Origin: Candidatus Krumholzibacteriota bacterium
GTDB taxonomy: Bacteria; Krumholzibacteriota; Krumholzibacteriia; Krumholzibacteriales; WJIX01
Assembly (NCBI GenBank): GCA_034520215.1
Contig: JAXHNR010000002.1
Coordinates: 344,642 to 408,641, forward strand
DNA length: 64,000 nucleotides
Direction of reading: 5' to 3'
Shown here: positions 26,121 through 59,635 of the stretch, one piece after another
Layout of the letters: each line of letters opens with the position of its first letter
Numbering within the stretch: the first letter of the stretch is position 1
Translations under genes and position numbers: made by a program
Notes under the pieces: model-generated
The model's input: the letters and a program-made list of their open reading frames with translations, nothing else
Databases searched by the model: none
Told to the model about the DNA's origin: nothing

Positions 26121-26121
26121 T

Positions 26122-32939: not shown

Positions 32940-32941
32940 AC

Positions 32942-36143: not shown

Positions 36144-36243
36144 CACTCAGCGGCAATGAACCGGAGCCTGCCACTGATGTGAACATAGCAGATGTGGATC
36201 TCAGTGAGTATGACGCTCTTCTCGGTGAAAAGGAGGTGGCGAC

Positions 36244-40230: not shown

Positions 40231-40265
40231 AATGAAGGTGGATTCTTAAAATAGGGAGGCGAATT

Positions 40266-41255: not shown

Positions 41256-41293
41256 GTTTTTTAATCATCAGATAATGGGTTAGGACTTGTACT

Positions 41294-42834: not shown

Positions 42835-42847
42835 AAAGAGAAGAAAA

Positions 42848-43828
42848 TTGAGCAATTTTGAAGATGCAATTTTTAGGCAGATAAGGGGGTTGTGGACAGG
42901 CCATGCTCTTTTAGCGGCAAAGAAATTAGGAATTATGGAACTTCTTATGAAGTCAGGTCTATCAATTCCCCAGTTAGCGGATCAGCTATCTGTTGATGAG
43001 AGAGGGATGCGAGCTCTGATATCAACTTTAAGTGACATTGGGATAGTCAATAATGAGAACGATGTAATAAGTCTTACGGCATTAGGTAGAGAAACATCTC
43101 TTCCAGACAGGTCTTTATCTGGTTATATAAAATTTCACTCGTTGCTCAGCAATCATTGGGCGAATCTCGATAAATTACTTAAAAAGGGATCTTCGCTGCC
43201 AATTGATCCGAATATCTCTGTTTCTCCTGAAATTGTGAAATCGTATATTGAAGCTATGGATGCTCTTGGAATGCCCATTTCGGAAGAGCTTGTAAATGCT
43301 CTCGACATAAAATCTGGAGATAGAGTACTTGATTTAGGTGGGGGAAGCAGCGTACATGCACGTGCAATATTGTCAAAACATCCAGATGCTCAAGTAACAT
43401 TACTTGATAGACCCATTGTTATTAAACTTCTAAAAGAAGAATTTTCAGGGAAGTGGAATATATCCAAGAACTTAATTTTAACTGAAGGAGATTATTTGAA
43501 TTTAAGGAGTGATGAGAAATATGATATTATTCTTTTATCAAATATAATTCATAATGAAAGTAGTGATAATATTCTTAATATACTCGAGAGTTGCTCTAGG
43601 GTTCTTAATGAAGGTTCCCGTCTGGCGATTCTGGATTATTTTTACAGTGCTAATAATAAATTAACTTCATCACCTGCAGGATTTGATTTATTGTTGTATT
43701 TGATAACCAGCCATGGCAAAATACAGAATCTGGATTACATCGAAGACCTAGTTAAACAAGCGGGTTTCATAGAGCCTGTATATTCAGTGTTGGGCAATTA
43801 CCGTTTGGGTATTTACAGAAAAGCATGA
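42848..43828 (+). CDS. SAM-dependent O-methyltransferase (class I, with N-terminal dimerisation/HTH-like domain)
   Basis: VLDLGGGSSVHARAIL (motif I) and DIILLSNIIHNES (motif II-like). Confidence 0.6.
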   Translation: MSNFEDAIFRQIRGLWTGHALLAAKKLGIMELLMKSGLSIPQLADQLSVDERGMRALISTLSDIGIVNNENDVISLTALGRETSLPDRSLSGYIKFHSLLSNHWANLDKLLKKGSSLPIDPNISVSPEIVKSYIEAMDALGMPISEELVNALDIKSGDRVLDLGGGSSVHARAILSKHPDAQVTLLDRPIVIKLLKEEFSGKWNISKNLILTEGDYLNLRSDEKYDIILLSNIIHNESSDNILNILESCSRVLNEGSRLAILDYFYSANNKLTSSPAGFDLLLYLITSHGKIQNLDYIEDLVKQAGFIEPVYSVLGNYRLGIYRKA

Positions 43829-43836: not shown

Positions 43837-45795
43837 TTGAGCAAGGAAAAGGATTTGTTCAGCCTGGTTCATCGCATACGCCCAAGAATGGAATTCTCAA
43901 AATACCTGCGTTCCTTAAAAAATACAAATGATCATAAAAATATTCGATTATATTTAGACCGTGTAATGAAGTCCGGTGATTACCCCGCACATATTGAGAA
44001 TTTCTTAAGCTTGTCTTTCAGGACTATACAGGATGAATTAATTTTACCTTTCCTCAAGGCAAATCCTCTTGATTTGAAGAACAATTGGAATATTATCTCT
44101 GGGGCTTTCACATATTTCTCCGGTGAAGCCGGGAAGGCCATTCCCTATTTCTTAAATTGGGATAAGACAGACGGCAAAGTGCAGCATTCAGTAAATCCGG
44201 GTTTTAAAATGTATTGCGATACCTTGAGATCTCAATCTAATGAAAACGAAATCTGTAATCATCCCGATATTGAAAACATACATGAATGTCCAGAATTGCG
44301 AAATTGCCTAGGCAAATTTCTCGACAGGATTAAATATACTGGTAGCCGACTTATTGAGAGAAAATTACCTGTAAGATCATTTATCTCATTTGAATTAGAA
44401 AAACTAAATGAAGTAGCATCCAATGATGCTGAAGCACAACGTGTATTTACAGAGCTGAAAAAATTAGCAGATATTGCTCCAGGCAAATCTATCGTTGAAA
44501 ACGATTCTATAAGATCTTCTTCTTCCATAAAAAAGGAGCTGGCTGAGACAGCTGATTTCCTTAGCCCAGATGTTCTAGATCTGGTTGTGGATATCTACGA
44601 ACAATTTAAATCAACAGCCCTTTTCCCACTATCAAATGGCAAATTCAATGAATCAGAAAGGAAAATGTCGAACAAATTACAACTAGAAAACATTAATTAC
44701 CTTTCAACGGAAAATTTGGAAACGGGCCATGATTATTCTCTTAAGGAATTCGCCAATCTTGTATTATCTTTGTCGGTTATTTACCAGGCGCCCTATTTTT
44801 ATCTGTTGCATTTTGGGCCGGCAATTAAAGAAGAAAGAGATGATGATTTTCCGGTCGGTACCGGTACGCTGGCAATTAACAGTTTTATGCTTAGGGATGA
44901 ACTTCTCAGCTATATAAGTCTGCTGGCCGATACGGCCATATCCTCTATTTCAAAAGCAGAAGCGGTAGTGCTCCAACACAGGCACGAGACTACAAAAAGA
45001 AACCTTCTTCTTGCTGAAAGTGCTTATGGAGTTGGCCATACTCAAAAAGACAGGTTTACCAGACTTCGGGGGCAGCTTGAAAACGCTGAAGATTATTTGT
45101 CCCCTGATCTTCTTGATTCGGCCGAAGCTGCTGTATGGGTAAGTAAAGCGAGAGCAAGCGCGAAAAAGGCAGCAGATAGTTCAACAACAATGGATTTTAT
45201 GGCTAACTTGTTTCAAGTTAACGGGGAGATCGAAAAAGTGGATTCCAGATTCTTTCCGGAAGAAGATGAAGGACCATACAACATTCACGAACATCTAAAA
45301 GATGAAATAAAGACTTTTGATGTGCCTTTCGAGTTGAACGCTAGTAATATTGAAAATCTACGTATTATCGATAATGTTGATGAAAATAAAAGAAGATTAT
45401 ATGATGAATTTTATGATGACATATTGCACGAATTATTAGCAAATGCAGTAAAAGCAACTACAGATAATATTGTACAACTGGAAATTAATTATCAGCCAAT
45501 AGATTTAAAATTAGATAATTCTAAAGATAAATTTGAATGCCTTGTAATATCAAATGAAACCAGGTATAGTGATTTTGAAAGCAGGCTTGGGCTTTCTGTT
45601 GGGAATTGGACTGAATGGGATATCGGGGAGAAAGGGCCAAAAGGCGCTTTAAGGCAAATCGCCATTCGTCTAAAAGCGACAAATCAGGGGCTCCTATTAG
45701 CCAAACCTGATTTAAAAAATGATAAATATTACTTTAGGATTGGTCTTTATTTATTCAATATGATAAATAGAACTAATGATAAACATGGGGGTTAG
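43837..45795 (+). CDS. cytoplasmic histidine-kinase-like protein (HATPase_c at C-terminus, degenerate G1 box)
   Basis: N-box LHELLANAVKAT. G2-like ESRLGLSVG. Candidate H-box QHRHETTKRNL. No TM segments. Confidence 0.4.
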   Translation: MSKEKDLFSLVHRIRPRMEFSKYLRSLKNTNDHKNIRLYLDRVMKSGDYPAHIENFLSLSFRTIQDELILPFLKANPLDLKNNWNIISGAFTYFSGEAGKAIPYFLNWDKTDGKVQHSVNPGFKMYCDTLRSQSNENEICNHPDIENIHECPELRNCLGKFLDRIKYTGSRLIERKLPVRSFISFELEKLNEVASNDAEAQRVFTELKKLADIAPGKSIVENDSIRSSSSIKKELAETADFLSPDVLDLVVDIYEQFKSTALFPLSNGKFNESERKMSNKLQLENINYLSTENLETGHDYSLKEFANLVLSLSVIYQAPYFYLLHFGPAIKEERDDDFPVGTGTLAINSFMLRDELLSYISLLADTAISSISKAEAVVLQHRHETTKRNLLLAESAYGVGHTQKDRFTRLRGQLENAEDYLSPDLLDSAEAAVWVSKARASAKKAADSSTTMDFMANLFQVNGEIEKVDSRFFPEEDEGPYNIHEHLKDEIKTFDVPFELNASNIENLRIIDNVDENKRRLYDEFYDDILHELLANAVKATTDNIVQLEINYQPIDLKLDNSKDKFECLVISNETRYSDFESRLGLSVGNWTEWDIGEKGPKGALRQIAIRLKATNQGLLLAKPDLKNDKYYFRIGLYLFNMINRTNDKHGG

Positions 45796-45797
45796 AA

Positions 45798-47396
45798 ATG
45801 ATGGCGGCAGGTTTTGACAAAATCCGCATTCTGCTTTTAGATGATAGAGACAGTCTCAGACCTCAGGACGGACTTTCTCCGAGATTAAAGAAATGGTTCG
45901 ACGTAAAATGGATTGCTACACCATCAGAAGCTCGTGCCTATAGGGATTCATCATGGGTTTGTATAACCAGAGAACCTGAATTGTTAAATAAACTTGGATG
46001 GGTGCCAGAAATATTTGTAATTGATTACGCGCTGACACAAGAAGAAATCCCTGTATTAGATAGAGTTAGAAGAAATAAAGATAAGTATACAGATTTGAGC
46101 CCCTTGCCCAACCTTGAGGATGCTCTTTCCAAACTTGGAATTAGTAGTTCAGGCATATCAGTCTTGAAGGAACCGCCGGTAACACCGTCTGCTGGAAGTG
46201 AATTCTGGGGCTGTTATATTGGTGGCCTTATTCTATCTACCTTCGCGGATTATCCAGTTTCAGCCGTTACAATAACAAGATATGGCGAGTCGGACTTCTT
46301 AGAAAATGCCAAGGATGTAGCATTTTTTGAATGGATGATGGAAAAACAGACAAATACTCAATTAAAGGGTACGGGAGCAAAAAGTTTGGATTGGACTGAA
46401 ATAATTTCTGAGGGTGCCATAAAACTCCGTGAAAGGATTAAGCAACTTGCCAGCATTGGTATAATAACATTGGACCTCGAGGATATTTTGCAGCTTATCC
46501 ATAATACAAGCCACCCAACAGTATCATATTCCTCAAGATATGGAAAAAGAAGTTTGCCAGTTCAAGGCCTATTTATAGATGAACGTGATGAAAAAGTAAG
46601 AAAAGAAAAAGCCAAGAAATGGGCCGAAGAAATAATCGAAGAAGCCTTGACTTATATGGAGAAAGGATCTGAACCAGAGGAATATGTAAGTACTTTAGAT
46701 CAAATTGAAGAAGGTTTAGGAGTAGCTAGAGACCTCTGGGATAAATGGGAAGGCGAAGAAGTGCCCCAACATATGGAATGTTCAAGAATATTCGGGCAAG
46801 TACAACAGGTAGTTAAAGCGGGCGAAAGAGATTTAAAAGAAGATGAAATAAAAGAACTGGATAGATGGTGCGCTAAATATGACTTAGTCCTGGAAGACGT
46901 TATAAATACTTTAAAAAAAAGAAAGTATACTCTTAAGACAGATGGGGGGGATATTAGAGCCTATAATTGTGATGTTATTGTAAAAAGGTGGGCTATTCTC
47001 TTCACGATTGTAAGGCTTGCAATTATTGCATGGCATGCCTCAAGGGAATTGGACCGTGATATAAGAATTTCCTCTCACGACGTATATATGGCACTTTTCC
47101 CCCTGGCAATTAACCTGCCTTATTATCTGCATGAGCCTATGGGTAAAGAATCAGGTGAGCATACAAAATATTTGAAAAGATTAAATAGAGACGGATCCAC
47201 TTCAAGCGGCTGGGGTGAAATTGGGATAAGTGTCGTTGATGTATTAGCAGGCAAAGATTTTGACGAAAATTCACATGGGTTATTTTCGTTTGAAAGGAAA
47301 ATTCTTCGAATGTTCTCTGTAGGGCTTGGTTGTGGCAACAGACAGAACTTAAAGAAAGGTTCTGTTTTGAATAACATATTATTTGGACCTTTTTGA
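45798..47396 (+). CDS. hypothetical protein with a degenerate receiver-like N-terminus
   Basis: IRILLLDDRD followed by EIFVIDYAL, which is the spacing of acidic pocket and phospho-Asp in receiver domains. The rest is unknown. Start overlaps the upstream stop. Confidence 0.3.
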   Translation: MMAAGFDKIRILLLDDRDSLRPQDGLSPRLKKWFDVKWIATPSEARAYRDSSWVCITREPELLNKLGWVPEIFVIDYALTQEEIPVLDRVRRNKDKYTDLSPLPNLEDALSKLGISSSGISVLKEPPVTPSAGSEFWGCYIGGLILSTFADYPVSAVTITRYGESDFLENAKDVAFFEWMMEKQTNTQLKGTGAKSLDWTEIISEGAIKLRERIKQLASIGIITLDLEDILQLIHNTSHPTVSYSSRYGKRSLPVQGLFIDERDEKVRKEKAKKWAEEIIEEALTYMEKGSEPEEYVSTLDQIEEGLGVARDLWDKWEGEEVPQHMECSRIFGQVQQVVKAGERDLKEDEIKELDRWCAKYDLVLEDVINTLKKRKYTLKTDGGDIRAYNCDVIVKRWAILFTIVRLAIIAWHASRELDRDIRISSHDVYMALFPLAINLPYYLHEPMGKESGEHTKYLKRLNRDGSTSSGWGEIGISVVDVLAGKDFDENSHGLFSFERKILRMFSVGLGCGNRQNLKKGSVLNNILFGPF

Positions 47397-47421
47397 TTCA
47401 TTTCCGAGGTGAAACAGTATT

Positions 47422-48054
47422 ATGCTTGAAGACCTTTCTATAAATGAACTAAATAAATTTGCCAAAGAATTTATAGGGCGATTAAGAGCAAATAATAATT
47501 TGAAAGTTGTCTCGAATAGATATACGGATAAAGAACTTGAGATTATTGCCATGAGTTTGCTTTATAGCGAAATGATTGAAAACTGGGACAGAATTCGCCC
47601 TTTTGAGAATTATGCTAGAGGAAGTTTGTATCATAAGTTTACAAGAGAACTCAAGGGCAAAGATGATTTGATTGGCCCAAAAGTATTAGATTTTCAGGAC
47701 GACAAAATAGATAAAAGTAAGACTCAGATGCCAAATAGCCTGGATATGAATATTGACACTGCTTATACAAGAAAGCTAAGAGCAGAAGAATTAATTTCTG
47801 AACTAGAATCGGCTAAAAGAGAACATCAGAGAGGGAAAAGGGTATTATCAAGGCGTCGCATGTATATCGAATTTGGAATTGGGAAAAAGAATTGGAGTGG
47901 AGTATACATAGGTCTTGGATTTGATCTTCATCCTGATATTTATTTAAAAGATGACAAAACTGAAGCTCAGAGGTTAGCTGTATTATCCCGCAGAAATACC
48001 TTTATTAAATACGGGCTTAGTGGAGAAAATGCCGAAATTGAGACGAAAGAATAA
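47422..48054 (+). CDS. hypothetical protein
   Basis: 210-aa ORF in the same operon. Low-complexity basic C-terminus. Confidence 0.3.
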   Translation: MLEDLSINELNKFAKEFIGRLRANNNLKVVSNRYTDKELEIIAMSLLYSEMIENWDRIRPFENYARGSLYHKFTRELKGKDDLIGPKVLDFQDDKIDKSKTQMPNSLDMNIDTAYTRKLRAEELISELESAKREHQRGKRVLSRRRMYIEFGIGKKNWSGVYIGLGFDLHPDIYLKDDKTEAQRLAVLSRRNTFIKYGLSGENAEIETKE

Positions 48055-48763: not shown

Positions 48764-48934
48764 ATGGAATCATTCGAAAAGGATATTATTCGCCAGTCAA
48801 GTATGCCGCTTGAGGATGGGGGTGACACGCATTTTCATCCCTGGAGTGATGGGAATGGATTCACTGTGACTACACGCCTTCCCGGTGGTGATGCATTCTA
48901 CGAAAATTTTGAAATTGATAGTTTTAATCAGTGA
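48764..48934 (+). CDS. small hypothetical protein (56 aa from internal ATG)
   Basis: RBS AGAGAGGAG precedes the ATG at 48764 (MESFEKDIIRQ...). Confidence 0.3.
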   Translation: MESFEKDIIRQSSMPLEDGGDTHFHPWSDGNGFTVTTRLPGGDAFYENFEIDSFNQ

Positions 48935-48962
48935 TTTGAAGCTTAAAAGAATAGGAGTTGCT

Positions 48963-49289
48963 ATGTGTTACAATTGCGGAAATTGCTGGTGTTATGGTTG
49001 TGACGATAATGATGATTATGAACTTCCTGGATATGGAAGCATTAATCATAAGAAAGATTATTACAATGACCTTCCTGAGCCTGTAGCTGACCCCATTGAT
49101 CCGGTTAGAGATATAGGTGGCACCATTTTGGGGCATCGAGATAGGTACCTGAATAGCTTTAAACCGCTTAGTGACCCTATGCCGATGGATATCGGTCCGG
49201 GAGGTTTTATAAGAGATCCTTTGGGAAACACGATTGGAGAGATAGGGCCCGGTAATACCCTTCTCCCTCCTCCCAGGATCGGTTTCTAG
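48963..49289 (+). CDS. small Cys-rich protein (108 aa) with N-terminal CxxCxxCxCxxC cluster and Gly/Pro-rich tail
   Basis: MCYNCGNCWCYGCDDNDDYELPGYGS... RBS ATAGGAG upstream of the ATG at 48963. Confidence 0.4.
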   Translation: MCYNCGNCWCYGCDDNDDYELPGYGSINHKKDYYNDLPEPVADPIDPVRDIGGTILGHRDRYLNSFKPLSDPMPMDIGPGGFIRDPLGNTIGEIGPGNTLLPPPRIGF

Positions 49290-49302
49290 CAGCTCTTATT
49301 TA

Positions 49303-49337
49303 AGATGGGGGCGATTAATCCCGCCCCCATCTTTTAA
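49303..49337 (+). terminator. rho-independent terminator
   Basis: aagatgggggcg-attaat-cccgcccccatctt forms a 12-bp GC-rich stem and is followed by TTTT. Confidence 0.7.
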
Positions 49338-49343
49338 AATCTA

Positions 49344-49769
49344 TTGAGTGTTAGAGCAAAAAATGAATGGAAGAATCTTATGAAGAATAATTTATTTAAA
49401 GTGAGAACCCTTTGCGAAAGCACAACTAATAGATTAGAAGAACTTCTTGAGGAAATTAAATGTTGCAAGTTGTTGGGGATTGAACCGAAAGGTGTAGATC
49501 TCAGTGTACTTCCGGATCTCGTTAAGATCAGAAGGGAATTTGATTTTCTTCATTGGCAGTTGTCAAAGATTGAACCGGAACCCTGGTATATTGAAGATTT
49601 AACACTTATTTCTGAGAGCTTAGAATATTGTGAGCATACCCTTATTGAGGAGATAAAAGGCTTACATAATTGTGAATGGAACTGGGAACTGAGCATAGAT
49701 AAGTGGATAGAGAAACTTTCAATAGTGTTGGTGCAGCTTCCAACTGAAAATATGAGCCCTAATGAATAA
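49344..49769 (+). CDS. hypothetical protein
   Basis: 141-aa ORF. No motif recognised. Confidence 0.3.
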   Translation: MSVRAKNEWKNLMKNNLFKVRTLCESTTNRLEELLEEIKCCKLLGIEPKGVDLSVLPDLVKIRREFDFLHWQLSKIEPEPWYIEDLTLISESLEYCEHTLIEEIKGLHNCEWNWELSIDKWIEKLSIVLVQLPTENMSPNE

Positions 49770-49890: not shown

Positions 49891-52062
49891 ATGCTGCAGC
49901 GAATTAAATATGCATCACGTATAAAGGGCATCACTATATATGGAAATAGAAAAAAAATTATCAGGTGCAGTTTAATACTCGCCAGTTCAATTTTGATATT
50001 AGTCATTTTAATTTCCTTATTAGTTTCTTCCTATGTCTGGCCGAAAATGGATTACGCTCATGTTAGGAGCCTCCACCCGGCAATATACGATTCTAGCGGA
50101 AAGTACTGCGGCATTATTGCTGGCGCGATAGATCCTCACGCTGATTTCTCAACCAGTAGAAGCTGGGGAATTGATCACAAAACTTTTGAAGCGTCACCAG
50201 AAATCCCTGAAGTGTGGGAGTCAGTTCTTAGAATTCTGGAAGACCGTAACCTCGGTAATTTCCCGGGGTTCATGGGCCTTGATCCGGTGGGTTTAATTCG
50301 GGCCGTTGTTTCGGGAGGAAAATTTGGAGGATCAACTCTAGGAATGATGATAATTAGGACCTTGCTCATAGATGACAGCTCGTTTGTTTTTCCTGAGTAT
50401 CGCTACAACAGAAAATTAAAGGAAATACTATATACTCCGGCAATGTATTTAAGATTAGGCGAAGATGGCATTATCCGCTGGGCTTCGCTACATCTCGCCG
50501 TGGCCAGGGGAGCGAGGGGATCGGATTTCGGTGCCGTTCTCCACGGCATCAGCCCGGCTTCCCTGGCCGTTTTTAACAAAACACCCAATGAGCTTTCTGC
50601 AGCAGAGCAGGCGCTGCTGGCAGCGGCAGTCAAACATCACTTTTTGCTCAAACCCCTTCGTAAAGATTCTTATTCGGTAGACGAAACGCAATTTTTAAAA
50701 ACACGAAGAAGGGCTGTTTACGGAATTTCCCAGATTGACATGGATGAGACAGAAAAGAATGCCGCTATTAACGAGTTACAAGGCATGTCTGCTCCGACAG
50801 TAAGAATTGATCCGGAATGGCTAAGAATTTTACCCTCAGATGAATCAGAAACTTTTAAGGCCTATGCAAATCCCCAGAGGCTTTCAATATATGCGGTCAA
50901 AGGTGAAAGCAATTCAGTTATAGCTGAACTTCTGGAAAGGTTCGGATGGTCTTTCAGAGAAGAAATTGCGACGGTAACCATATCTATTGATGCGGTGGCA
51001 AACCGGACATTCAAGGAAAAGTTTGAAGAAAGACTTTCACATCTGGAGAAGTGCTATAAGGACAAAATTAATATCCCATTAATCTACGAAGATTCCAAGT
51101 ATAATACAGCAGAAATAGTTTTCGCGATGGCGGATGAAAACGGGCGGATAATACGATTTTACTCTAATACAGCGGGCGCATACTTTGGAAAAAATTCATT
51201 GCGAAATTCCGATGGAAAATATCAGCATAGAATCGGCGGGAGAACACTCGGCTCAATTAGCAAAGCCTATTGTGCGGTAATTCTCGGTGATGAAAACTGT
51301 TCTCCTGATGATATGTTTATTAATAAGTGTATCCCCGGTGTAAGGAATCCTGGAGGCATTCCTGGTGTAAAATCTTCTTCAGAGCGTGATGCATATTATC
51401 CAGCTGAAATAACTTTCGCAAGGTCACTTAATCTTCCCCTGCTGAACCGAATGATAAGAGCAGACAGGAATAAAATTATTCAGGCAAAGAAGGATTTTGG
51501 GATTACCTTGTGGGATGGTACTCCTCTGGCTACTGCATTTGTTCTGGGACATTGCTCTGCTACACCTCAACGAGTACATACATTCATATCAGATTTGCTG
51601 GCTTATATAGATGACGGGGGCCTCCCTGATAGAGAAACACATATTGTAGAATCTGTCCGAAAATATAGAAGCTCTGAAAGAATTATTATGTCGGATTCAT
51701 TCAGGCCAAGAATAAAAAGTTGGCTGGATGACTATCGATCCAGAGATTTCGTTGAAAGTGTACTCAGTTCAGTGGTGCATTTGGGGGGAACCGGTCAGAG
51801 AATGTCAGATTTAATACCCGAAAACGATCCAAGGATTGAACTTGCTATCGGAAAGACAGGAACTGGTACAACAGAAGATCATAATGAGATAACTGATCTT
51901 TTAATGACAGGTGGAATTGTATTGAGAAATTCCAACTACAAGAGATTGACTTACTTCGTGGCCATAAGGTCACCTATGCCTACGCGCCCTCTTGGAAAAA
52001 ATATATCCGCTGGTGAATTTCTAGCACCGCTTATCCGCCTGGCAATTAATGACGTACTTTAA
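49891..52062 (+). CDS. divergent class-A penicillin-binding-protein-like protein (GT51 glycosyltransferase plus transpeptidase-like domain)
   Basis: N-terminal TM. GT51 motif 1 EDRNLGNFPGFMGLDPVGLIRAV. Degenerate motif 2 GGSTLGMMIIRTLL. Motif 3 RKLKE. Transpeptidase-like SxxK (GSISKAY) and KTG (IGKTGTGTT). ATG at 49891 is preceded by AAGGAGGAA. Confidence 0.55.
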   Translation: MLQRIKYASRIKGITIYGNRKKIIRCSLILASSILILVILISLLVSSYVWPKMDYAHVRSLHPAIYDSSGKYCGIIAGAIDPHADFSTSRSWGIDHKTFEASPEIPEVWESVLRILEDRNLGNFPGFMGLDPVGLIRAVVSGGKFGGSTLGMMIIRTLLIDDSSFVFPEYRYNRKLKEILYTPAMYLRLGEDGIIRWASLHLAVARGARGSDFGAVLHGISPASLAVFNKTPNELSAAEQALLAAAVKHHFLLKPLRKDSYSVDETQFLKTRRRAVYGISQIDMDETEKNAAINELQGMSAPTVRIDPEWLRILPSDESETFKAYANPQRLSIYAVKGESNSVIAELLERFGWSFREEIATVTISIDAVANRTFKEKFEERLSHLEKCYKDKINIPLIYEDSKYNTAEIVFAMADENGRIIRFYSNTAGAYFGKNSLRNSDGKYQHRIGGRTLGSISKAYCAVILGDENCSPDDMFINKCIPGVRNPGGIPGVKSSSERDAYYPAEITFARSLNLPLLNRMIRADRNKIIQAKKDFGITLWDGTPLATAFVLGHCSATPQRVHTFISDLLAYIDDGGLPDRETHIVESVRKYRSSERIIMSDSFRPRIKSWLDDYRSRDFVESVLSSVVHLGGTGQRMSDLIPENDPRIELAIGKTGTGTTEDHNEITDLLMTGGIVLRNSNYKRLTYFVAIRSPMPTRPLGKNISAGEFLAPLIRLAINDVL

Positions 52063-52085
52063 CCATTTGAAAAGGAGGCATTACA

Positions 52086-53744
52086 GTGCGTGTAGACATA
52101 CCCAATCAAGCGAAAAAGAAGAGAAGAGTTTCAATCGATTCACTGCTGGCCATAGCAATAGTCCTCTGCAGTATTGCCAGTTTTAATTCTACCTACTATG
52201 GTTTTCGCTCAACCTATGCTTATCATGCTGAAGAAGCTTGGCTTACATGGTTTCTCCCCATATTTATCACCTTCGGAGTTCAAATTCTCCTGATCGCCAG
52301 TGTGATTAAATTCAAACGCTCAAAAGGATTAATAAGAAGATTTGCCTGGGTAGTAATGATCGTACTCGCGATGATGATTTCTACCGGGTATGGAATTTCA
52401 TACTGGGATGAAGCCATAGGGGCTAGAGAACGAATAGAGGTCAAAGCAGATGGCATAGCCTATAACGCAATGGAAACATTGGGAAAAGGGATCAGCACTT
52501 TTGACACATTTGTTCGCGCTTCCGAGGACCTTGCCGAGCATTCAGAAAAAATGGCTGAGTTAGAAGATAAAGAGGGATCCTCTTGTGGTTGTAAAGTAAG
52601 GGACGGGCAGGGACCACGCTGGAGAAAGAGAATGACAGATTTTCATACCATGCGTTCTCGTATTCCGCATATACAGGCTCTCAGGGATAGTTTGAATTAC
52701 GTATATAATAATATGATTGCGCGGACTGAGAACTTCGATGTCCATAATGTAGACAACTTTTCTAAATCCTTTAAGGTTGACATTCTCAGAGCAAACAAGT
52801 TCATTGGAGACGAACAGATAGCCATTCTTGACGGATGGCTCATTAAGCGGCTCAAGCAGAACGAAGATGGATTTTATGATAAAGGCAAGAAGTACACCTG
52901 CCCGGATCCCATTCTCAAAGAGAAAATGCTGGAGTTAAGAAGCTCCATTGAACATCTTTCTCCTCTGCCGAATCCCGGAGATATCAGGATTGACGATTCT
53001 AATGCAATCGAATCTATCAAGTACGTTTACAGTGCTTTCAAGAACGCACTTACTTTTATGCCCAAATCGACTGAACAGCTTGAAGCTGAAAGAAGAGAAA
53101 AGATAAACTCTCCCGCGGTCGATGAAGATTCCTCTAAGAAAGTTGAACCTGTTGCCATTCTCATTGGATGCACTGTAGATCTTCTTATAATCCTGGTTGG
53201 TTTTCTTTATGGGCCAACGGGGGGCTCTTCTCCTGATCCGAACACTCCCCTTCTCGGCAATGCTGCTGGAACACTCAAAAAGATGCTGGTTCGCCCTGAA
53301 TATAAGAGGCTTTTGTTAAGTTACATCAGTATGGATAGGGACACTGAGGATCTCGGAAGGTTCCTTCGCAAAAATATGACTCTGCTCCCGGATGGAAGGT
53401 ATATTATCAATTTTGATTCCGAGGATCTTGAGAGTGTTGAAAGGGATACGATTATTGAAATGCTCGATCTCTGGACAATAGACAAACTGGTGAAAGAGAT
53501 CGACCCCAAAAAGGAACCCTATTTCAAAAAGGAAGCGAAGAACTCAACAAACTACCTGTATCCGGAATTCCTGTGGAAACTTTCCAAGAATACCAGCCCT
53601 GCGGCTCTAAGAATCGCGATGAGAATTCTCCAGAGGAGAATAGAAATGGGCATGCCCTCAATAGCGGATTACAGGCAGGCAAAAAAGGAAATTGAGGATG
53701 ATCCTGAGTCCGGAGAATCTGGCGCCGAAGAAACCGCAAGCTAA
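52086..53744 (+). CDS. polytopic membrane protein of unknown function
   Basis: Three N-terminal TM helices, a roughly 250-aa soluble domain, a fourth TM (VAILIGCTVDLLIILVGFLYG) and an acidic C-terminus. GTG start. Confidence 0.4.
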   Translation: MRVDIPNQAKKKRRVSIDSLLAIAIVLCSIASFNSTYYGFRSTYAYHAEEAWLTWFLPIFITFGVQILLIASVIKFKRSKGLIRRFAWVVMIVLAMMISTGYGISYWDEAIGARERIEVKADGIAYNAMETLGKGISTFDTFVRASEDLAEHSEKMAELEDKEGSSCGCKVRDGQGPRWRKRMTDFHTMRSRIPHIQALRDSLNYVYNNMIARTENFDVHNVDNFSKSFKVDILRANKFIGDEQIAILDGWLIKRLKQNEDGFYDKGKKYTCPDPILKEKMLELRSSIEHLSPLPNPGDIRIDDSNAIESIKYVYSAFKNALTFMPKSTEQLEAERREKINSPAVDEDSSKKVEPVAILIGCTVDLLIILVGFLYGPTGGSSPDPNTPLLGNAAGTLKKMLVRPEYKRLLLSYISMDRDTEDLGRFLRKNMTLLPDGRYIINFDSEDLESVERDTIIEMLDLWTIDKLVKEIDPKKEPYFKKEAKNSTNYLYPEFLWKLSKNTSPAALRIAMRILQRRIEMGMPSIADYRQAKKEIEDDPESGESGAEETAS

Positions 53745-53773
53745 AACAGAAAACATGAATTTTGGAGGATGTC

Positions 53774-55708
53774 ATGAAAAGAAAAAAGAGAAAAGCAAAT
53801 AATAAGTCATTTTTAAGAAAATATGGTTTGTTACTGGCTGGAATTTTCATACTCCTTCTATATGGATTTGAATACATCAGGACGCCATGGACTGAAACTG
53901 TAATGGAAATTGGCAGGTATCCTTTGCATTCTTTGAGGTTTTTGGTGGGTAAGGGAGGACTTCTCGTTGCATGGGCAATGATATTGGCTTACCTGACAAA
54001 GAACGTTTCCGGGAGTTTAGTGCCGGGCAGGGGAAAGCGAGCAGGTATAATGACTTCTCTTATCATATCAATCTTTTTTATGCAGATCATCGGCAGGATT
54101 AGAGATGCAGGCAAACCATGGGGAGGCCTTATAGGAGAAGCAGTTCTTAAAAGCAGTATGGGTGAGTATGGAATAATCGGAGGACTGCTTTTTATCTCTT
54201 TACTGGTAATCGCGATAATTCAGTTCGGATTCAGATTGTCAATTATTAACCACAAGAATATAAAAAATCTTTTTATTTCAGCAGGAAATATGATCTCAAA
54301 GGGGGCAAGGAATATTATGAATTTCTTAAAGAATCACCATTCTGAAATCATCAGATTGGCGCACAGAATGTATTATGCAACCCTTGATTTTCTCCTTGAG
54401 GATGAAAAAGAAGAATCATTATCAGGAGCAAGTTTATATCCTCAGGCAACCAAACCTATCAATGGAATAACTTATAACATGGCTTCTAATTCTTCTTCAC
54501 TCGATCATAGTGAAAATGAAAAAGATACTGAAAGCCAAGTAATAAGTTCAAATAAAACTGAGAGCCGATATCCAGATATGCACAGAAACCTACCGGATAT
54601 ACTTTTAAAGAATCCTCTCCCTCTTGAAATACTACCTGATGTACCGAACGAGATACATAAAGCTCGAGAGAAACTCCATGATGAAATGGATTTCATAGAA
54701 GAGACTATAATTCGCATGGCTTATCAGATGGAAGGGGTCCGTCTCGGCATTATGGACAATAACAAAATAATAGGTATGACATCGATGACTATTAAGTTTA
54801 CAAGAAATGGCAGGGAAGGACCTGTGATAACAAATCTTTCCCGGATTGTAAATGACCTTCAGATTAAAATAGGAAGGAACCCGATATCGATATATTTCAA
54901 GGATAACGTGGTCTTTGAAATACCTTTGAAGCCTGAGGAATGCAAGACAGTTTATTTAAAAGAACTTCTCTATGACTTAAAAGACCTCTCAGATGATTCA
55001 ATAAAAGCGGCCATCGGAAAAGACAGCTACGGAAAACCGACACTGTTGGATTTCGGTAAAGATCCTCATTACCTCATAGGCGGCAGTACTGGAAGTGGGA
55101 AAACGATATGCCTGAAATCTATCGCACTCGGCCTTGCATGTCGTTATTCTCCTGAAAATCTTTGGCTGGTTTGTTCAGATCACAAGGGAGATCTTCGCCG
55201 ACTTGAAGCACTCCCTCATATGAAAATACCTATAGCAAAAGATGATAATGAATTCATCGATTTCATAAATTATCTTGAAGATATGACGGAATTCCGTAAA
55301 AAGATTATAGGTACAGAGGAGTTTGACAGATTACCTAAAGTGGTTGCGATAATAGACGAAGTTCACGGATTTGAGGATAGAGACAGACTTGCCGGACTTC
55401 TTGCTGTGTGCAGGAGCCTCAAAATATCAATTATTCTTGCAACCCAGCACCCTAAATCAACAGTTTTACCCACCAAGCTGACTGCAAATTGCCCTGGCAG
55501 AATTGCCTTTAAGACAGCCACTAAATCTGCAAGCAGGATTATTATAGAAGAATCAGATGCTTACAAATTGCTAGGGCAGGGTGATGGGCTTGTTAAACAT
55601 TCAAGGGGAAGAGAACGGTTTAAAGGGGCTTTTGTGAGTGACATGGATTTGGAGGCAGTTGATGAGTATGTATCCGTTATCAACGAGATGGAAGTATATG
55701 ATGCTTAA
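53774..55708 (+). CDS. FtsK/SpoIIIE-family membrane-anchored ATPase (single motor domain)
   Basis: Four N-terminal TM helices. Walker A GGSTGSGKTICLKS, Walker B VAIIDEVHGF, and the ATQHP motif typical of FtsK-HerA ATPases. ATG at 53774 follows GGAGGA. Confidence 0.65.
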   Translation: MKRKKRKANNKSFLRKYGLLLAGIFILLLYGFEYIRTPWTETVMEIGRYPLHSLRFLVGKGGLLVAWAMILAYLTKNVSGSLVPGRGKRAGIMTSLIISIFFMQIIGRIRDAGKPWGGLIGEAVLKSSMGEYGIIGGLLFISLLVIAIIQFGFRLSIINHKNIKNLFISAGNMISKGARNIMNFLKNHHSEIIRLAHRMYYATLDFLLEDEKEESLSGASLYPQATKPINGITYNMASNSSSLDHSENEKDTESQVISSNKTESRYPDMHRNLPDILLKNPLPLEILPDVPNEIHKAREKLHDEMDFIEETIIRMAYQMEGVRLGIMDNNKIIGMTSMTIKFTRNGREGPVITNLSRIVNDLQIKIGRNPISIYFKDNVVFEIPLKPEECKTVYLKELLYDLKDLSDDSIKAAIGKDSYGKPTLLDFGKDPHYLIGGSTGSGKTICLKSIALGLACRYSPENLWLVCSDHKGDLRRLEALPHMKIPIAKDDNEFIDFINYLEDMTEFRKKIIGTEEFDRLPKVVAIIDEVHGFEDRDRLAGLLAVCRSLKISIILATQHPKSTVLPTKLTANCPGRIAFKTATKSASRIIIEESDAYKLLGQGDGLVKHSRGRERFKGAFVSDMDLEAVDEYVSVINEMEVYDA

Positions 55709-55742
55709 TTAGAGTTTTCAACTTGGGGAAAGGAGGTGAATA

Positions 55743-55955
55743 ATGTCAAATAGTAATGGTTACTTTAGGAATGGAGACAAGATCAGTAAAGTGACTGAGG
55801 ATGGACTCCGCATTAATTTTTATCCTTCGGGCATACCCCTAGTACAGATGCCTGGTCAGTCTCACAAGTCTTACAAGAAAGGCTTCGGCAAAGCTTTTTC
55901 GAACCAGTCTCCACAAGAAATGTCAAACTACGTTTCTGCTCTTTTTAAGAAATAA
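55743..55955 (+). CDS. small hypothetical protein (70 aa)
   Basis: RBS GGAAAGGAGGTG precedes the ATG. Last gene of the operon. Confidence 0.35.
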   Translation: MSNSNGYFRNGDKISKVTEDGLRINFYPSGIPLVQMPGQSHKSYKKGFGKAFSNQSPQEMSNYVSALFKK

Positions 55956-56102: not shown

Positions 56103-56335
56103 AAGGGTGTCTAGCGTCAACTATTTTTTCTCTTTAACGACAATTAAATTTCCCTTTTCTTTCCGGTAGAGTTTCTGGATTTTCTTGTGGCCGATTTCGT
56201 TTTTTTATTTCTCCTTCCTTTGTTTGATTCTTCTAATCTGTAACTGGCTAGATTGAGTTCAAGTATAACGCTATGATGAACCATTCGATCTATGGCTGCG
56301 GCAGTTACCATTGGATCTTTGAAGATTTTCTCCCA
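56103..56335 (-). pseudogene. istB: IS21-family (type 1) right end with IstB C-terminal fragment
   Basis: 56103-56140 is identical to the reverse complement of the IS right terminus at 37063-37102. Encoded tail WEKIFKDPMVTAAAIDRMVHHSVILELNLASYRLEESNKGRRNKK matches the IstB C-terminus. Confidence 0.65.
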
Positions 56336-56500
56336 AGTTTGGCAAACCAAATATCTGCAACATCGGAAACAGATGCTTTTGATTCCGAATGGAATGTTGG
56401 GTCGACTTTCTTCTATAAAATTATTGCTGTCTATAGGCATGGAAATAAGAGTGAATCTGCTTTGCTCATTCCTGATCAGATAGTTGTGTAGATTCCGGAT

Positions 56501-56602
56501 CAAACCTGCCACTTTGGTATGGTTAAACAGCAGGGAATAGAAAGTACCTCAGGGGTGGCAGGTTAAAACCGGAATGAGTGGCAACTTTCACCGGAATACA
56601 CA
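56501..56602 (+). repeat. IS21-family (type 2) right-end terminus, copy C
   Basis: Near-identical to 21765-21866 and to the reverse complement of 30222-30325. Confidence 0.65.
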
Positions 56603-56654: not shown

Positions 56655-57452
56655 TCAACTAATTATACTATATCTGATTCTGCTTAAATTTTCATCGCTT
56701 CTGGGTTTTCGGAAAATATATAAATGCTCATGCGCTATAAGAAGAATATTGAATTCCTCTGACATCTTCTGCCAGTACGGGTTGGATTTGCAGTTGTGCT
56801 GGATTTTTATAACATCTTCTCTGAGAGCAAAACCCTGCTTAAGAAATCTTTTTAAAACATATGAAGACAAAGGAATATAATGCCGATTTCTTCTAGTATC
56901 CCCGATCAAAACTGCACAAAAGCAGTCTTCTTTTAATACCCTGAAAAATTCCGCAATACCTTTTTCTAATTCATAACAGAATTTCTTGACTCCACCGATA
57001 TTCGATAAGTCACCTTTGATTTTTCCATTTGAATAATTGATTATATTAAGGTAAGGAGGATGTGTGAGTATTAAATCAACGCTTTCATTTTTAATGCCAT
57101 TTAAGGTTCTTACATCGCCAATTTTAACCTCAGGTTCATACTTATAATCACCTTTAAATGTTATATTTCTCTGTGCTCGTTTTACGGCTTCCGGGTTAAT
57201 ATCAAGCCCTATTGCCCTTCTGTTTAATAATTTTGCTTCAATTAAAGTTGTACCCCCACCAACCATGGGATCTAAAATCAGATCTCCTTCTTTTGAGTAT
57301 CTCAGAATTACATTCGTCGCTATCTGAGGTGCGAAATTACCCCTGTAATCCGAATTATGTGTAACCCAACTTCCTCTTTGAGGAAAAGACCACACGGTTG
57401 TGGTCTCCGTCACCTCATCATACCCTTTTACTTTCCTCAATCTTTTCCTCAA
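56655..57452 (-). CDS. DNA methyltransferase (N6A/N4C, pfam01555-like), second methylase of the RM operon
   Basis: LILDPMVGGGTTLIEA (motif I, DPxxGSGTT-like) and LILTHPPYL (motif IV). Confidence 0.65.
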   Translation of the reverse strand: MRKRLRKVKGYDEVTETTTVWSFPQRGSWVTHNSDYRGNFAPQIATNVILRYSKEGDLILDPMVGGGTTLIEAKLLNRRAIGLDINPEAVKRAQRNITFKGDYKYEPEVKIGDVRTLNGIKNESVDLILTHPPYLNIINYSNGKIKGDLSNIGGVKKFCYELEKGIAEFFRVLKEDCFCAVLIGDTRRNRHYIPLSSYVLKRFLKQGFALREDVIKIQHNCKSNPYWQKMSEEFNILLIAHEHLYIFRKPRSDENLSRIRYSIIS

Positions 57453-58692
57453 TCCACCTGCACCAGGATAATATGGTTGATGCTCTTCTTCTTAAAGTAC
57501 TTTCTGTACCACCATTTAAAACTGAATTCTTTCTCATTATCTCTGTAATGGCTTCTATCGATTCATCGCCTGACTTCAAGGCATTAAAGGAATCATAAAA
57601 AACTTTATGCTTGAATATTTGTCTTATCAGACCCTCATGTCTCTTGCTTCTGGGAAGTTTCACGAGTTCTTCCCCTAATTCAGTCAGACATACAATCCCT
57701 TTCTCTTTTGTAACAAGTTCTAAATATTTTGCGGCGTTGTAATAGTAATCCGCCTGCCTTGGATCAAAAGAGAAATAATCTGCGAAATCTTCTTTACTGT
57801 TAACGTCCGATTTAACCAGCTCCATTATATTTATAACCTTTTCAAAGTCATCTGCCTGCGGAAATGGAATACTCGCAGGATCAATTGGTAAAAAGTCCTT
57901 GATATCAAGAATTTCATCGGGAATTGGCTGTATTTCTTCCTGAAATAAAAAATTAGCTCTACTTAAAAGGACTATCGAATTGAAATTATCGTATTCAACA
58001 AATTCGAACTTCCAAAAACTAAAAACACCGTCAGAATATGAAAAAAATACCGGAATCACATTTTTATTGATTCTAGACATCCAATGTCTATAAGGATAGT
58101 ACAACTGTCTGATATTAAAATCATTCACTTTGCCTATTTTAGCTTCAACAATATAAAACTGGTCGCCCTCAAATCCTGCATCAAGTTCGGCTCCAGTTTT
58201 TGAAACTGTAATTTCTCTATCTCTATCAAATGTTTTAACCTTAAATTTAAAATCATCAGTGCCGAATTTTCCTCTGGCTGTGAACTTTATTTCATCGTCC
58301 AGAAATTCGGATAACATTTTCGAAATATCAGAGATAACTATGGCATTGTCCTCAGAAGTGATACTTTTTAAATCAATTGTTTCATAATCATCAATAATTG
58401 AGCTGTCAATCATTCTATTTTTATCTGAATATTTAACCTCACAATAAGAATTGAACTTTAAAAGCACATAGTCTTTCCTTGCAACGGGTAGAATTGAAAT
58501 ATCATTCTCCTTAAATATTTCCGGTCTGTTCTCGGAATGATCAAATTTGGCCATTAATCGGGGTTCCCTATTTGAAATATCCTTTATTTCAGTTGAAGAA
58601 ATTTTATATATCCCTTGTTCTTCTATCTTTTCAATAAGATTTAGATGCTTGTCTATTTCTTTCCAAGCCTTCTGATTTTTAGTTTCACGCAT
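57418..58692 (-). CDS. putative Type II restriction endonuclease
   Basis: Sits between two methylase genes with overlapping stops and starts. Candidate PD-(D/E)xK: ELDAGFEGDQFYIVEAKIG. Confidence 0.45.
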   Translation of the reverse strand: MRETKNQKAWKEIDKHLNLIEKIEEQGIYKISSTEIKDISNREPRLMAKFDHSENRPEIFKENDISILPVARKDYVLLKFNSYCEVKYSDKNRMIDSSIIDDYETIDLKSITSEDNAIVISDISKMLSEFLDDEIKFTARGKFGTDDFKFKVKTFDRDREITVSKTGAELDAGFEGDQFYIVEAKIGKVNDFNIRQLYYPYRHWMSRINKNVIPVFFSYSDGVFSFWKFEFVEYDNFNSIVLLSRANFLFQEEIQPIPDEILDIKDFLPIDPASIPFPQADDFEKVINIMELVKSDVNSKEDFADYFSFDPRQADYYYNAAKYLELVTKEKGIVCLTELGEELVKLPRSKRHEGLIRQIFKHKVFYDSFNALKSGDESIEAITEIMRKNSVLNGGTESTLRRRASTILSWCRWIEEKIEESKRV

Positions 58693-59635
58693 CGTAATTC
58701 CTTATAATCAGTTCCTTAACTTCGCCTCTTTTTTCAGCATTACAATTGATAACCCTTTTGGCAGTCACTCTTTCAATATTAAATCCCGAATAAAGATCAT
58801 CGAAGTAATCGTCATCCACATTGTAATTTTTGGGATCCGAATTACTGAGAAGCAAATAAGCGCCTTTCTTGTTCATTTTCTTGAAATATTCAGCCAATCT
58901 TATTTGATCTTCATTGTTAAAATCATCTTTAAAATAGCCGGTAAAATTAGACGTACTACTTATAGGTCTATAGGGAGGGTCAAAGTATACCATGCTGTTT
59001 TTAGTTATATGCCTTTTGGCCCTCTCGAAGTCTCCGCAAACTATTTTAGTATTTTTAAGTACTTTACTAACCTCTAGGATATTGACTTCATCGCAGATTG
59101 TAGGATTCTTATACCTTCCGGAAGGTACATTAAATTTTCCTTTGCTATTCTGCCTGAAAAGACCATTATAGCAGGTTTTATTTAAAAATATTAGATATGC
59201 TGCTCTTTCAACCCAATTATCAGTATAATCAGTGAAATTAAATTTAAGCATTTGCTTATTGTACTTTTCCCTGATTTGGTAATACATTTTTTTTCTATTA
59301 ACAACTTCTCTCCTAACATACCTGTTCTCAATTATTTTTAGTTCATTAATGAGCTCTGAAGGGTTATTTTTGATAACTTTAAATCCTACAATTAATTCCC
59401 TATTGATATCGAATAAAAAAGACTTTTCTATTTTAAAGTTATTCATCAGATAAAAAAATAAAGCTCCACCACCAACAAATGGTTCAACATATCTTTTAAT
59501 CTTGCCGGTATCTTTGATATTTTGAGGAAATCTTGATATTAATTCATTAATTAAAAGATTTTTCCCTCCAACCCATTTGAGAAAAGGTCTCGCAGCTCTT
59601 TTTGGTTGATTTTTAGTAATCAGACCTGTTGTCAT
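58685..59635 (-). CDS. dam: Dam-family (D12 class, alpha) N6-adenine DNA methyltransferase, probably GATC-specific
   Basis: RPFLKWVGGK, EPFVGGGALFF (motif I) and VYFDPPYRP (motif IV). Confidence 0.7.
   Translation of the reverse strand: MTTGLITKNQPKRAARPFLKWVGGKNLLINELISRFPQNIKDTGKIKRYVEPFVGGGALFFYLMNNFKIEKSFLFDINRELIVGFKVIKNNPSELINELKIIENRYVRREVVNRKKMYYQIREKYNKQMLKFNFTDYTDNWVERAAYLIFLNKTCYNGLFRQNSKGKFNVPSGRYKNPTICDEVNILEVSKVLKNTKIVCGDFERAKRHITKNSMVYFDPPYRPISSTSNFTGYFKDDFNNEDQIRLAEYFKKMNKKGAYLLLSNSDPKNYNVDDDYFDDLYSGFNIERVTAKRVINCNAEKRGEVKELIIRNYDA

Follow-up and report, generated by a model that had tools for sequence, protein, structure and literature searches.

The operon and its genes

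Class A penicillin-binding proteins (PBPs) are seen as housekeeping enzymes that build the cell wall. Here we describe a divergent member of this class, encoded in a four-gene operon of a Candidatus Krumholzibacteriota bacterium (GenBank assembly GCA_034520215.1, contig JAXHNR010000002.1), which forms a conserved pair with a membrane protein and is found, in some of the related loci, close to pumping ATPases of the FtsK-HerA superfamily. The operon lies in a stretch of 64,000 nucleotides (positions 344,642 to 408,641 of the contig, forward strand), referred to here as the window, whose numbering is used for all coordinates unless another locus is named.

The four genes, named A to D, are located on the plus strand. 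Gene A (49891-52062, with an alternative in-frame ATG upstream at 49858) encodes the divergent class A PBP, of 723 aa, and gene B (52086-53744) its partner, a protein of 552 aa with four transmembrane (TM) segments. They are followed by gene C (53774-55708), which encodes a membrane-anchored single-motor ATPase of the FtsK/SpoIIIE family (644 aa from the ATG, or 648 aa from a TTG at 53762), and by gene D (55743-55955), the last of the operon, encoding a basic soluble protein of 70 aa. The intergenic gaps are 23 nt between A and B, 17 nt (TTG start) or 29 nt (ATG start) between B and C, and 34 nt between C and D. AGGAGG-type ribosome-binding sites are located upstream of A, B, and D, the one of D being a strong site (AAAGGAGGTG), and D is a plausible gene. 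The public annotation of the identical contig contains the same four gene calls and, together with the coordinates of the open reading frames (ORFs), bears out the single-strand operon with gaps of 17-34 nt described in the original prediction, which had been made from the sequence alone. No repeats or mobile-element boundaries were detected around the A-D cassette, and the tRNA and Rfam scans of the window returned zero matches.

A divergent class A PBP

Protein A matches the Pfam model of the GT51 glycosyltransferase domain (Transgly) with 46.3 bits (cutoff 27), and gives no match to the Pfam hidden Markov model (HMM) Transpeptidase. Among the NCBIfam models, it scores 50.4 bits against PBP_1a_fam (cutoff 508.75), in an alignment spanning residues 116-672, 38.8 bits against PBP_1c (cutoff 494), and 26.4 bits against PBP_1b (cutoff 718). 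Since these cutoffs are not reached, A is not assignable to the orthologous groups of PBP1A, PBP1B, or PBP1C, and represents a separate family.

The motifs of the synthase are nevertheless recognizable in A, which carries ILEDRNL (with E117), GGSTLGMM, and RKLKE (with E178) in the GT51 domain, and S455-I-S-K458, S512-L-N514, and K655-T-G657 in the transpeptidase domain. Across 50 members of the family, E117 (in the EDRN of motif 1), R174, K175, S455, K458, S512, K655, G657, and T658 are invariant, and E178, the glutamate of motif 3, is conserved in at least 90%. The asparagine of the SxN motif is invariant in the 12 closest relatives and replaced by serine or threonine in about 10 of the 50. 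This family-wide alignment confirms both catalytic glutamates of GT51 motifs 1 and 3, as well as the transpeptidase-like SxxK and KTG motifs, all of which had been read from the sequence in the original prediction. Motif 2, described there as strongly altered, turned out to be less aberrant, as the consensus of the family itself is GGSTLxMQLVRS; on this comparison, the GGSTLGMM of the window is a mild variant of the family motif and not a loss.

A single TM segment is located at the N terminus of A. A profile built from 50 relatives aligns with PBP1b of Streptococcus pneumoniae over both domains (residues 57-588 of PBP1b), and the AlphaFold2 (AF2) model of A, computed from the 50-sequence alignment, reached a mean predicted local distance difference test score (pLDDT) of 91.9 and a predicted template modelling score (pTM) of 0.90. 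The top Foldseek matches of this model are full-length PBP1b structures of Escherichia coli (679 aligned columns, about 15% identity), followed by PBP1a and class B transpeptidase domains. HMM comparison and structure prediction, the two checks proposed together with the original prediction, hence agree on a PBP1b-like class A fold. By its predicted fold, A is a class A PBP with a GT51 and a transpeptidase domain that belongs to a separate, rare lineage and, judging from the conserved residues and the model, is probably active as a synthase.

The A family was exposed only by exhaustive HMM search, the word-indexed homologue searches being nearly empty: with A, they returned two matches, including only one relative, at 29% identity. 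The exhaustive search, among 1.84 billion cluster representatives, resulted in 130 representatives at E<1e-30, which form a coherent family, are nearly all 700-830 aa long, and are matched end to end. The named hosts include Krumholzibacteriota, Acidobacteriota, Beggiatoa/Parabeggiatoa, Sphingomonas, and Anaerolineales, and most of the clusters are singletons, as would be expected for an accessory, horizontally spread gene. No member of the family was found in 72,556 plasmids (PLSDB), in 50,697 phage genomes (tblastn), or in IMG/VR, at the sensitivities used, and a search with the C-terminal sub-alignment of A returned five metagenome loci and none from IMG/VR. As far as these distributions can tell, the A family is rare, patchy, accessory, and horizontally moving.

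The membrane partner of A

According to hydropathy and to the family alignment, TM1-3 of protein B lie at about residues 13-107 and are followed by a loop of ~245 aa (about 108-352), by TM4 (about 352-378), and by a C-terminal domain of about 170 aa. From the distribution of positive-inside charges, the loop would be periplasmic and the C terminus cytoplasmic. The large polytopic membrane protein of the original prediction is therefore right with regard to its four TM segments, but the bulk of the protein is taken up by the putative periplasmic loop and the C-terminal cytoplasmic domain. The sole invariant residues of the B family are all found in the loop, and include C167, C272, and the motif HS..A..E...G..CG......GPR...R..D; C167 and C272 could be disulfide-bonded.

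AF2 prediction of B, from three sequences, was poor overall (pLDDT 50.8). Residues from about 120 to 300 were modelled as an antiparallel helical bundle (pLDDT 65-89), and the C-terminal domain shows secondary structure resembling a winged helix-turn-helix (wHTH), yet with a pLDDT of about 32. No match of B was found in Pfam, NCBIfam, PADLOC, or PHROGs, also when nine members of the family were scanned singly, and the word-indexed homologue search returned one match with B and two with the B alignment. In some metagenome contigs of the Guaymas type, a B-like gene is broken into two ORFs (L016/L017, 10861-12185; L018, 10920-12571, in the numbering of those loci), which could be due to frameshifts, pseudogenisation, or sequencing errors. 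B stands for a sizeable uncharacterised protein family that has a clear, testable partner in A.

The FtsK-type ATPase

Protein C scores 67.1 bits against the Pfam model FtsK_SpoIIIE (cutoff 24) and begins with four TM segments at its N terminus, which a low-complexity linker connects to an alpha/beta motor with one Walker A motif (GSTGSGKT), a Walker B motif (VVAIIDEV), and a TQ sensor (ATQ). The four TM helices and the single Walker A/B motor claimed for this protein are accordingly supported by hydropathy, Pfam, and motifs alike. Its closest sequence match in the PDB is the motor of E. coli FtsK (2ius), in an alignment that reaches about 15 residues from the C terminus of C. Since the FtsK-motor alignment runs to the end of the protein, C has no gamma domain, the winged-helix domain of FtsK associated with KOPS (FtsK-orienting polar sequences) and XerD.

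An arginine of C, located 12 residues ahead of the loop-II position, aligns to the finger Arg620 of PaFtsK. In loop II itself, FtsK has ATQRPS, whereas C has ATQHPK and its homologue in locus L011 AVQHPT, so that both have a histidine at the position of Arg632. This arginine, part of the TQR motif of loop II, is a DNA-gripping residue of PaFtsK (bioRxiv 10.1101/2022.01.03.474797). The stretch with the histidine maps to 55400-55420 of the window (residues about 557-562 of the 644 of C). A missing arginine finger in C was considered and rejected, since the change to TQH affects the loop-II Arg632 and the counterpart of the finger Arg620 is kept. Overall, C resembles the cellular FtsK/SpoIIIE proteins in its four TM segments, linker, and alpha/beta motor with Walker A, the DE of Walker B, TQ, and the Arg620-aligned arginine, and differs from them in the absence of gamma, in the histidine for Arg632, in its length of 644 aa, and in its location in a defence island.

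Protein C matches PHROG 1358 ('FtsK/SpoIIIE-like', from phages and mobile genetic elements) with 160 bits (E=1.3e-46), and scores 82.4 bits against the equivalog of cellular FtsK, NF007615, whose cutoff is 1566. In PADLOC, it matches mad8 and the C-terminal ATPase region of SspH, at about E=1e-19, and all its matches there are to generic ATPase profiles (mad8, SspH, HerA); the plasmid search with C likewise returned only generic FtsK motors. In the original prediction, C had been considered a secretion- or conjugation-type ATPase rather than the division protein FtsK. The second part of this assignment stands, given the absence of gamma and the 82 bits against a cutoff of 1566, but the first is unsupported, as the scores against type VII secretion system (T7SS), TraB, and conjugation models are all far under their cutoffs.

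Protein export is the explanation most directly concerned by these scores. The cassette could be a T7SS-like or other protein-secretion device, with C exporting D or a wall-acting protein, and several features of C agree with this: it scores about equally against EccCa (TIGR03924, 76.7 bits) and FtsK (82.4 bits), EccC and YukB chains are among its PDB matches, the DNA-gripping arginine of loop II is replaced by histidine, and a small-protein gene, D, follows C. However, C has one ATPase domain, compared with three in EssC/EccC, and the cutoffs of the T7SS models are far from being reached (509 for TIGR03924, and 778 for TIGR03928, against which C scores 56.7). Protein D is not conserved and, by reading of its sequence, contains no central W-x-G; moreover, the Pfam scans of the genes examined around A-D gave no T7SS component family, no WXG100-like neighbour was seen, and the partner ATPases at other loci are HerA-like and VirD4-like. 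We consider this explanation very unlikely, and the secretion apparatus proposed in the original prediction is unsupported.

A conserved A-B pair with an exchangeable ATPase

In order to define the conserved part of the operon, 16 independent genomic contexts of A-family genes were compared, the window included (loci are designated by the prefix L; L008 was too short to judge for B). A B homologue occurs with A in 13 of the 16 contexts, directly beside it in the window, L001, L003, L004, L005, L006, L011, L012, L013, L015, L016, and L018, and 3 kb away from the A-family gene in L014; no B was detectable in L009, L019, and L020. In many of these contexts, the stop and start codons of A and B overlap, which suggests translational coupling. 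The four-gene arrangement, on the other hand, is not conserved as a unit: A and B are kept, the ATPase varies, and D is an orphan. On the evidence of these loci, the conserved unit is A plus B, with the ATPase as an optional, exchangeable component.

A pumping ATPase is located at most two genes away from A-B in four of the 16 contexts, which are the window, L011, L004, and L005. In L011, the A-B pair, preceded by the gene of a small protein named S, is followed by a 661-aa FtsK-like protein (14060-16045 of that locus), which has the same architecture as C and 33% identity to it (E=5e-50); the gene after this one encodes a PLDc_2 nuclease. In L004, a 953-aa HerA/DUF87-like ATPase, which also matches the PADLOC HerA profiles, is divergently transcribed from A-B. 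In L005, a 215-aa TM protein and then a 1131-aa VirD4/TrwB-like ATPase (TrwB_AAD_bind, TraG-D_C, HTH_17) come after S-A-B, and two IS240 transposase genes frame the whole set from S to the ATPase. All four partner ATPases match the mad8 defence-ATPase profile of PADLOC. Since a BLASTP search with C finds only the L011 protein among the other partners, the same core must have been joined by members of three or more FtsK-HerA clades. As such ATPases are few per genome, four of 16 contexts would be well above chance, by a rough estimate rather than a genome-wide computation. Except in L004, where it is divergent, the ATPase gene shares the strand of A-B, and the gaps measure 17-45 nt in both the window and L011. 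The association of a PBP-like enzyme with a pumping ATPase, which the original prediction had drawn from the window alone, is therefore real and recurrent. In agreement with what had been supposed, we found no earlier account of it in the literature searched, in PADLOC, or in Pfam.

The two small proteins of these loci differ in their conservation. S, encoded directly upstream of the A-family gene in four loci (L005, 9654-9920; L006, 351-629; L011, 9689-9982; L012, 9695-9991, each in its own numbering), is a conserved protein of 88-98 aa with three hydrophobic segments and a basic tail. It has no counterpart in the window and, to judge by these four sequences, is a third, optional component of the cassette. 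Gene D has no family match in Pfam, NCBIfam, PADLOC, or PHROGs, and no homologue of it is present among the six-frame ORFs of L001-L014 or in L016-L020; at the level of sequence comparison, it is an orphan.

The VirD4/TrwB-like ATPase of L005, with its TraG-D_C domain and excisionase-type HTH_17, brings in the possibility that the cassette is a minimal apparatus for DNA transfer or uptake of a mobile element, where C would be a TraB/TcpA-like pump, B a channel or scaffold, and A a remodeller of the wall at the mating site. In L012, A-B is located 5 kb from the type IV secretion system (T4SS) genes TrbL, CagX, and TrbI, and C itself shows weak similarity to TraB and CedB in NCBIfam. The gene content is also reminiscent of Gram-positive conjugation, where a coupling protein of FtsK or VirD4 type, a polytopic membrane protein, and a peptidoglycan enzyme are encoded in one operon, as in Streptomyces TraB, Clostridium Tcp (TcpA, TcpH, TcpG), and ICEBs1 (ConQ, ConG, CwlT). 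However, the wall enzymes of those systems are hydrolases and A is a synthase, and we know of no conjugation system that uses a wall synthase instead of a hydrolase. Furthermore, the relaxase, VirB4, and transfer genes of such systems were not seen here: among the flanking genes scanned around the window cassette there are no relaxase, VirB4, or replication genes, and neither the window nor L011 or L005 showed a relaxase, a VirB4-type ATPase, or a replication/partition gene, as far as flanks were scanned or have Pfam matches. The scores of C are 17.5 against plasmid_TraB (cutoff 800) and 15.2 against conju_CD1115 (cutoff 250), the A family is missing from the plasmid, phage, and IMG/VR collections mentioned above, and the position of the L005 set between two IS240 copies is that of a cargo. 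A DNA-transfer apparatus, also put forward in the original prediction, is thus an unlikely explanation of the cassette.

Genomic surroundings

The cassette of the window lies between a BREX (bacteriophage exclusion) cluster, IS21 copies, and a restriction-modification cluster. The BREX-like cluster (4947-21620) encodes a small AAA protein (4947-5423), a 1242-aa DUF6079 protein (5458-9186), a DUF1016/YhcG PDDEXK nuclease (9198-10364), a 981-aa N6_N4 methylase (10434-13379), an inserted pair of AAA_21 and DUF4276 proteins (13340-15341), an SNF2 helicase (15341-18136), a 237-aa protein whose match to CBS is weak and sub-threshold (18123-18836), PglZ (18814-20841), and, as its last member, a 260-aa protein. 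The cluster is complete, and in having DUF6079 together with PglZ it is similar to type 3 BREX or to the 'BRC' systems (PMC12839542). It is followed by two blocks of low GC content (21942-29880 and 32109-34564; 0.29-0.32, compared with 0.42-0.47 in the neighbouring sequence), which encode a carbamoyltransferase, S-adenosylmethionine (SAM) methyltransferases, GT2 and GT1/GT4 glycosyltransferases, a NadA-like protein, a radical SAM protein, and a PIG-L deacetylase, and are probably a horizontally acquired cluster for surface polysaccharides (glycan modification). An IS21-type element, with a Mu-transpos_C_2 transposase and IstB, lies at 34728-37092, and a truncated IstB fragment is located on the minus strand immediately downstream of D (56144-56512); together, they point to repeated insertion events in this island. 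Next to the fragment, also on the minus strand, is a cluster (56655-59635) of an N6_N4 DNA methylase, a 424-aa DUF6996/DUF6997/DUF7226 protein, and a Dam-family methylase, which probably constitutes a defence system, restriction-modification-like or of another type, with the DUF protein as an effector candidate.

Upstream of the cassette, three large and tightly packed ORFs (U1-U3, of 652, 532, and 210 aa; 43837-48054) are followed by two small ones (U4 and U5, 48885-49769) directly before gene A. U1-U3 start 9 nt past an operon for a radical SAM-SPASM protein, an NMT1-type ABC transporter, and an O-methyltransferase (39190-43828). U1-U5 do not match any model of Pfam, NCBIfam, PADLOC, or PHROGs and do not recur in the related loci; for these two reasons, they were rejected as components of the system.

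Genes of mobile elements and of defence or conflict systems also surround several of the other loci. L001 has an integrase nearby; L011 is flanked by an HTH/M78 pair, an AAA protein, a large HEAT-repeat protein, and a ResIII helicase; L012 contains, besides its T4SS genes, a type III CRISPR-Cas system with RT-Cas1 (reverse transcriptase-Cas1); L018 encodes Septu PtuA and an EAD2-kinase-FGE protein; L009, HicAB and PIN; and L014, Uma2 and caspase-like genes. The chromosomal surroundings of L013, L016, L019, and L020 are unremarkable. Radical SAM genes near several loci were discounted, since their frequency was judged to be about that expected by chance for anaerobes.

The position of A-B in L016, 4 kb from minCD, is an observation in favour of A and C being the housekeeping PBP1 and FtsK of the organism. 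This explanation is extremely improbable. No synteny with dcw (division and cell wall) or other division genes is conserved in any locus, a finding that bears directly on the housekeeping alternative set against the original prediction. In addition, C has no gamma domain and falls far short of the FtsK equivalog (82 bits against 1566), A scores 50 bits against a PBP_1a cutoff of 509, the A family occurs rarely and patchily, the genes lie in a defence island, and canonical PBPs occur beside family members in L013 and L015. The non-housekeeping status implied for the operon is consequently supported.

These two loci bear as well on a further explanation, in which A-B would be an auxiliary module for wall synthesis or repair, that is, a back-up or low-affinity synthase against beta-lactams, lysozymes, hydrolases delivered by type VI secretion systems (T6SS) or as bacteriocins, or phage lysins, and the FtsK-like gene would be merely a neighbour. 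By analogy, such a module might be compared with PbpC and alpha-2-macroglobulin (A2M), or with the mobile mecA. In L013, A-B adjoins a canonical class A PBP, and in L015 (7067-21627 of the locus, in a 3.4-Mb genome), a divergent 846-aa A-family gene on the minus strand and a 956-aa B-like gene are located beside an operon of A2M (1764 aa) and PbpC, which we interpret as the juxtaposition of two PBP-containing envelope 'defence and repair' pairs. The conserved catalytic residues and PBP1b fold of A, the majority of A-B contexts without a pump, and the occurrence of the pair as cargo of regions bearing a transposon or an integrase (L005, L001) agree with it too. What it leaves unexplained is the presence of three unrelated FtsK-HerA clades within two genes of A-B in four of the 16 contexts, far above chance according to our estimate, and the fact that three of these four ATPases are co-directional with A-B, with gaps of 17-45 nt in the window and L011, even though a 215-aa gene intervenes in L005 and the gene of L004 is divergent. 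We regard a pure repair module as rather unlikely.

An envelope module against invading DNA?

Under the concept of 'HerA/FtsK capture', anti-invader systems such as DndFGH/SspFGH and the BRC systems have been brought together (PMC10853773, PMC12839542). The systems described so far are cytoplasmic and combine DNA-binding wHTH or ORC/Cdc6 components with nucleases, with no envelope or peptidoglycan part (PMC10853773, PMC12839542); peptidoglycan is mentioned in neither paper, transglycosylases are absent from PMC10853773, and the sole 'transglycosylase' of PMC12839542 is a tRNA-guanine transglycosylase. The loci described here follow the same pattern, as a non-ATPase core is joined to pumps of differing origin, in conflict islands and, in one case, with a nuclease. 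We therefore favour the reading that A-B, with or without the ATPase, belongs to the accessory genome, is spread horizontally, and forms an envelope module of the 'HerA/FtsK capture' type, probably directed against invaders, with a rough probability of 40%. More generally, the data suggest an undescribed envelope-based anti-invader or DNA-handling module and not one of housekeeping cell division, and the contexts favour conflict or defence cargo over a self-transfer apparatus, secretion, or development. The developmental wall-synthesis module, which had also been proposed, is unsupported, the context being of the conflict/defence type instead.

In such a capture-type module, A, which is periplasmic and predicted to be catalytically competent, would form a two-protein core complex with B. 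The periplasmic helical domain of B would most likely bind or regulate A, whereas its cytoplasmic domain would link the pair to the cell interior. This core would then recruit a pump, which in the window would be C, an FtsK-type hexamer without the KOPS-reading gamma, and elsewhere a HerA-like or VirD4-like ATPase, accompanied once by a PLD nuclease. A-B may mark, sense, or re-seal places of wall breach or remodelling, upon phage injection, conjugative mating, or lysis, and would bring the ATPase to them, where it may intercept foreign DNA, incoming or outgoing. What the sequences show is the order of the genes, the folds and catalytic motifs, the pairing of A with B, the repeated linkage to interchangeable ATPases, and the setting in conflict islands. 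The physical A-B-C complex, the direction of the signalling, the DNA substrate, and the defence role are all what we infer from the genes and their contexts. A more specific proposal, that the cassette is a form of envelope-embedded immunity not recognised before, in which the synthase and its transmembrane partner detect or re-seal breaches made by phages or conjugation machines and position an exchangeable pump, sometimes with a nuclease, to intercept DNA, is doubtful at present.

Several observations weigh against the capture-type reading. The histidine in loop II of both C and its L011 homologue means that DNA translocation by these pumps is not assured. The cassette of the window has no nuclease or other obvious effector, and A, B, and D have no match in PADLOC-DB 2.0. 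A fully conserved synthase active site would not be expected of a mere sensor, and this intact site, the missing nuclease of the window, and the loop-II histidine are the main points that the capture-type reading leaves unexplained. The contexts, moreover, are few and were picked by the length of the surrounding sequence. A pumping ATPase is present in only four of the 16, and several A-B pairs lie in ordinary surroundings; from the scarcity of pumps and from loci such as L013, L016, L019, and L020, it follows that the A-B core may have a wall function unrelated to DNA.

Comparison with known systems

Among the closest counterparts of A-B in organization are the class A PBPs with their partners, such as PBP1A-LpoA, PBP1B with LpoB, FtsN, or CpoB, and PbpC with the A2M YfhM. 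As these synthases, A is a bitopic protein with GT51 and transpeptidase domains, all the catalytic motifs, and a predicted PBP1b fold, and, as in the Lpo and PbpC/A2M pairs, it is paired with a second envelope protein. It differs from the known class A PBPs in being about 15% identical to the solved structures and under all NCBIfam cutoffs for PBP1a, PBP1b, and PBP1c. Contrary to the Lpo partners, which are outer-membrane lipoproteins, B is an inner-membrane protein with four TM segments and belongs to an undescribed family. The A-B pair is also set apart by being accessory, mobile, and recurrently tied to pumping ATPases.

With the capture systems, the cassette shares a core joined to FtsK/HerA ATPases of different clades, the location in defence islands, and the matches of C to mad8 and to the C-terminal ATPase region of SspH. 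A linked nuclease is found only in L011 (PLDc_2) and not in the window. In contrast to these systems, the core consists of a periplasmic wall synthase and a membrane protein. Zorya (ZorAB) and Kiwa (KwaA) bear a conceptual likeness to the cassette, as both pair sensing at the membrane or wall with a component in the cytoplasm that is directed at DNA. To our knowledge, however, neither of them contains a PBP or an FtsK-type pump, and there is no sequence relationship, A and B having no match in PADLOC. Housekeeping FtsK, too, has been linked functionally to septal wall synthesis (PMC10683668).

What is new here, on our reading, is a conflict module of the capture type with an unprecedented peptidoglycan-synthase core, together with a PBP lineage and a partner family. 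If the link between the PBP and the pumps is functional, it would tie wall synthesis to the conflicts with mobile DNA. If the defence reading is true, a periplasmic, peptidoglycan-based layer would be added to the anti-phage repertoire of bacteria, and the concept of 'HerA/FtsK capture' would be extended to the envelope. If A-B is instead a repair or resistance module, it would represent a new mobile PBP family of relevance to the tolerance of wall-acting agents.

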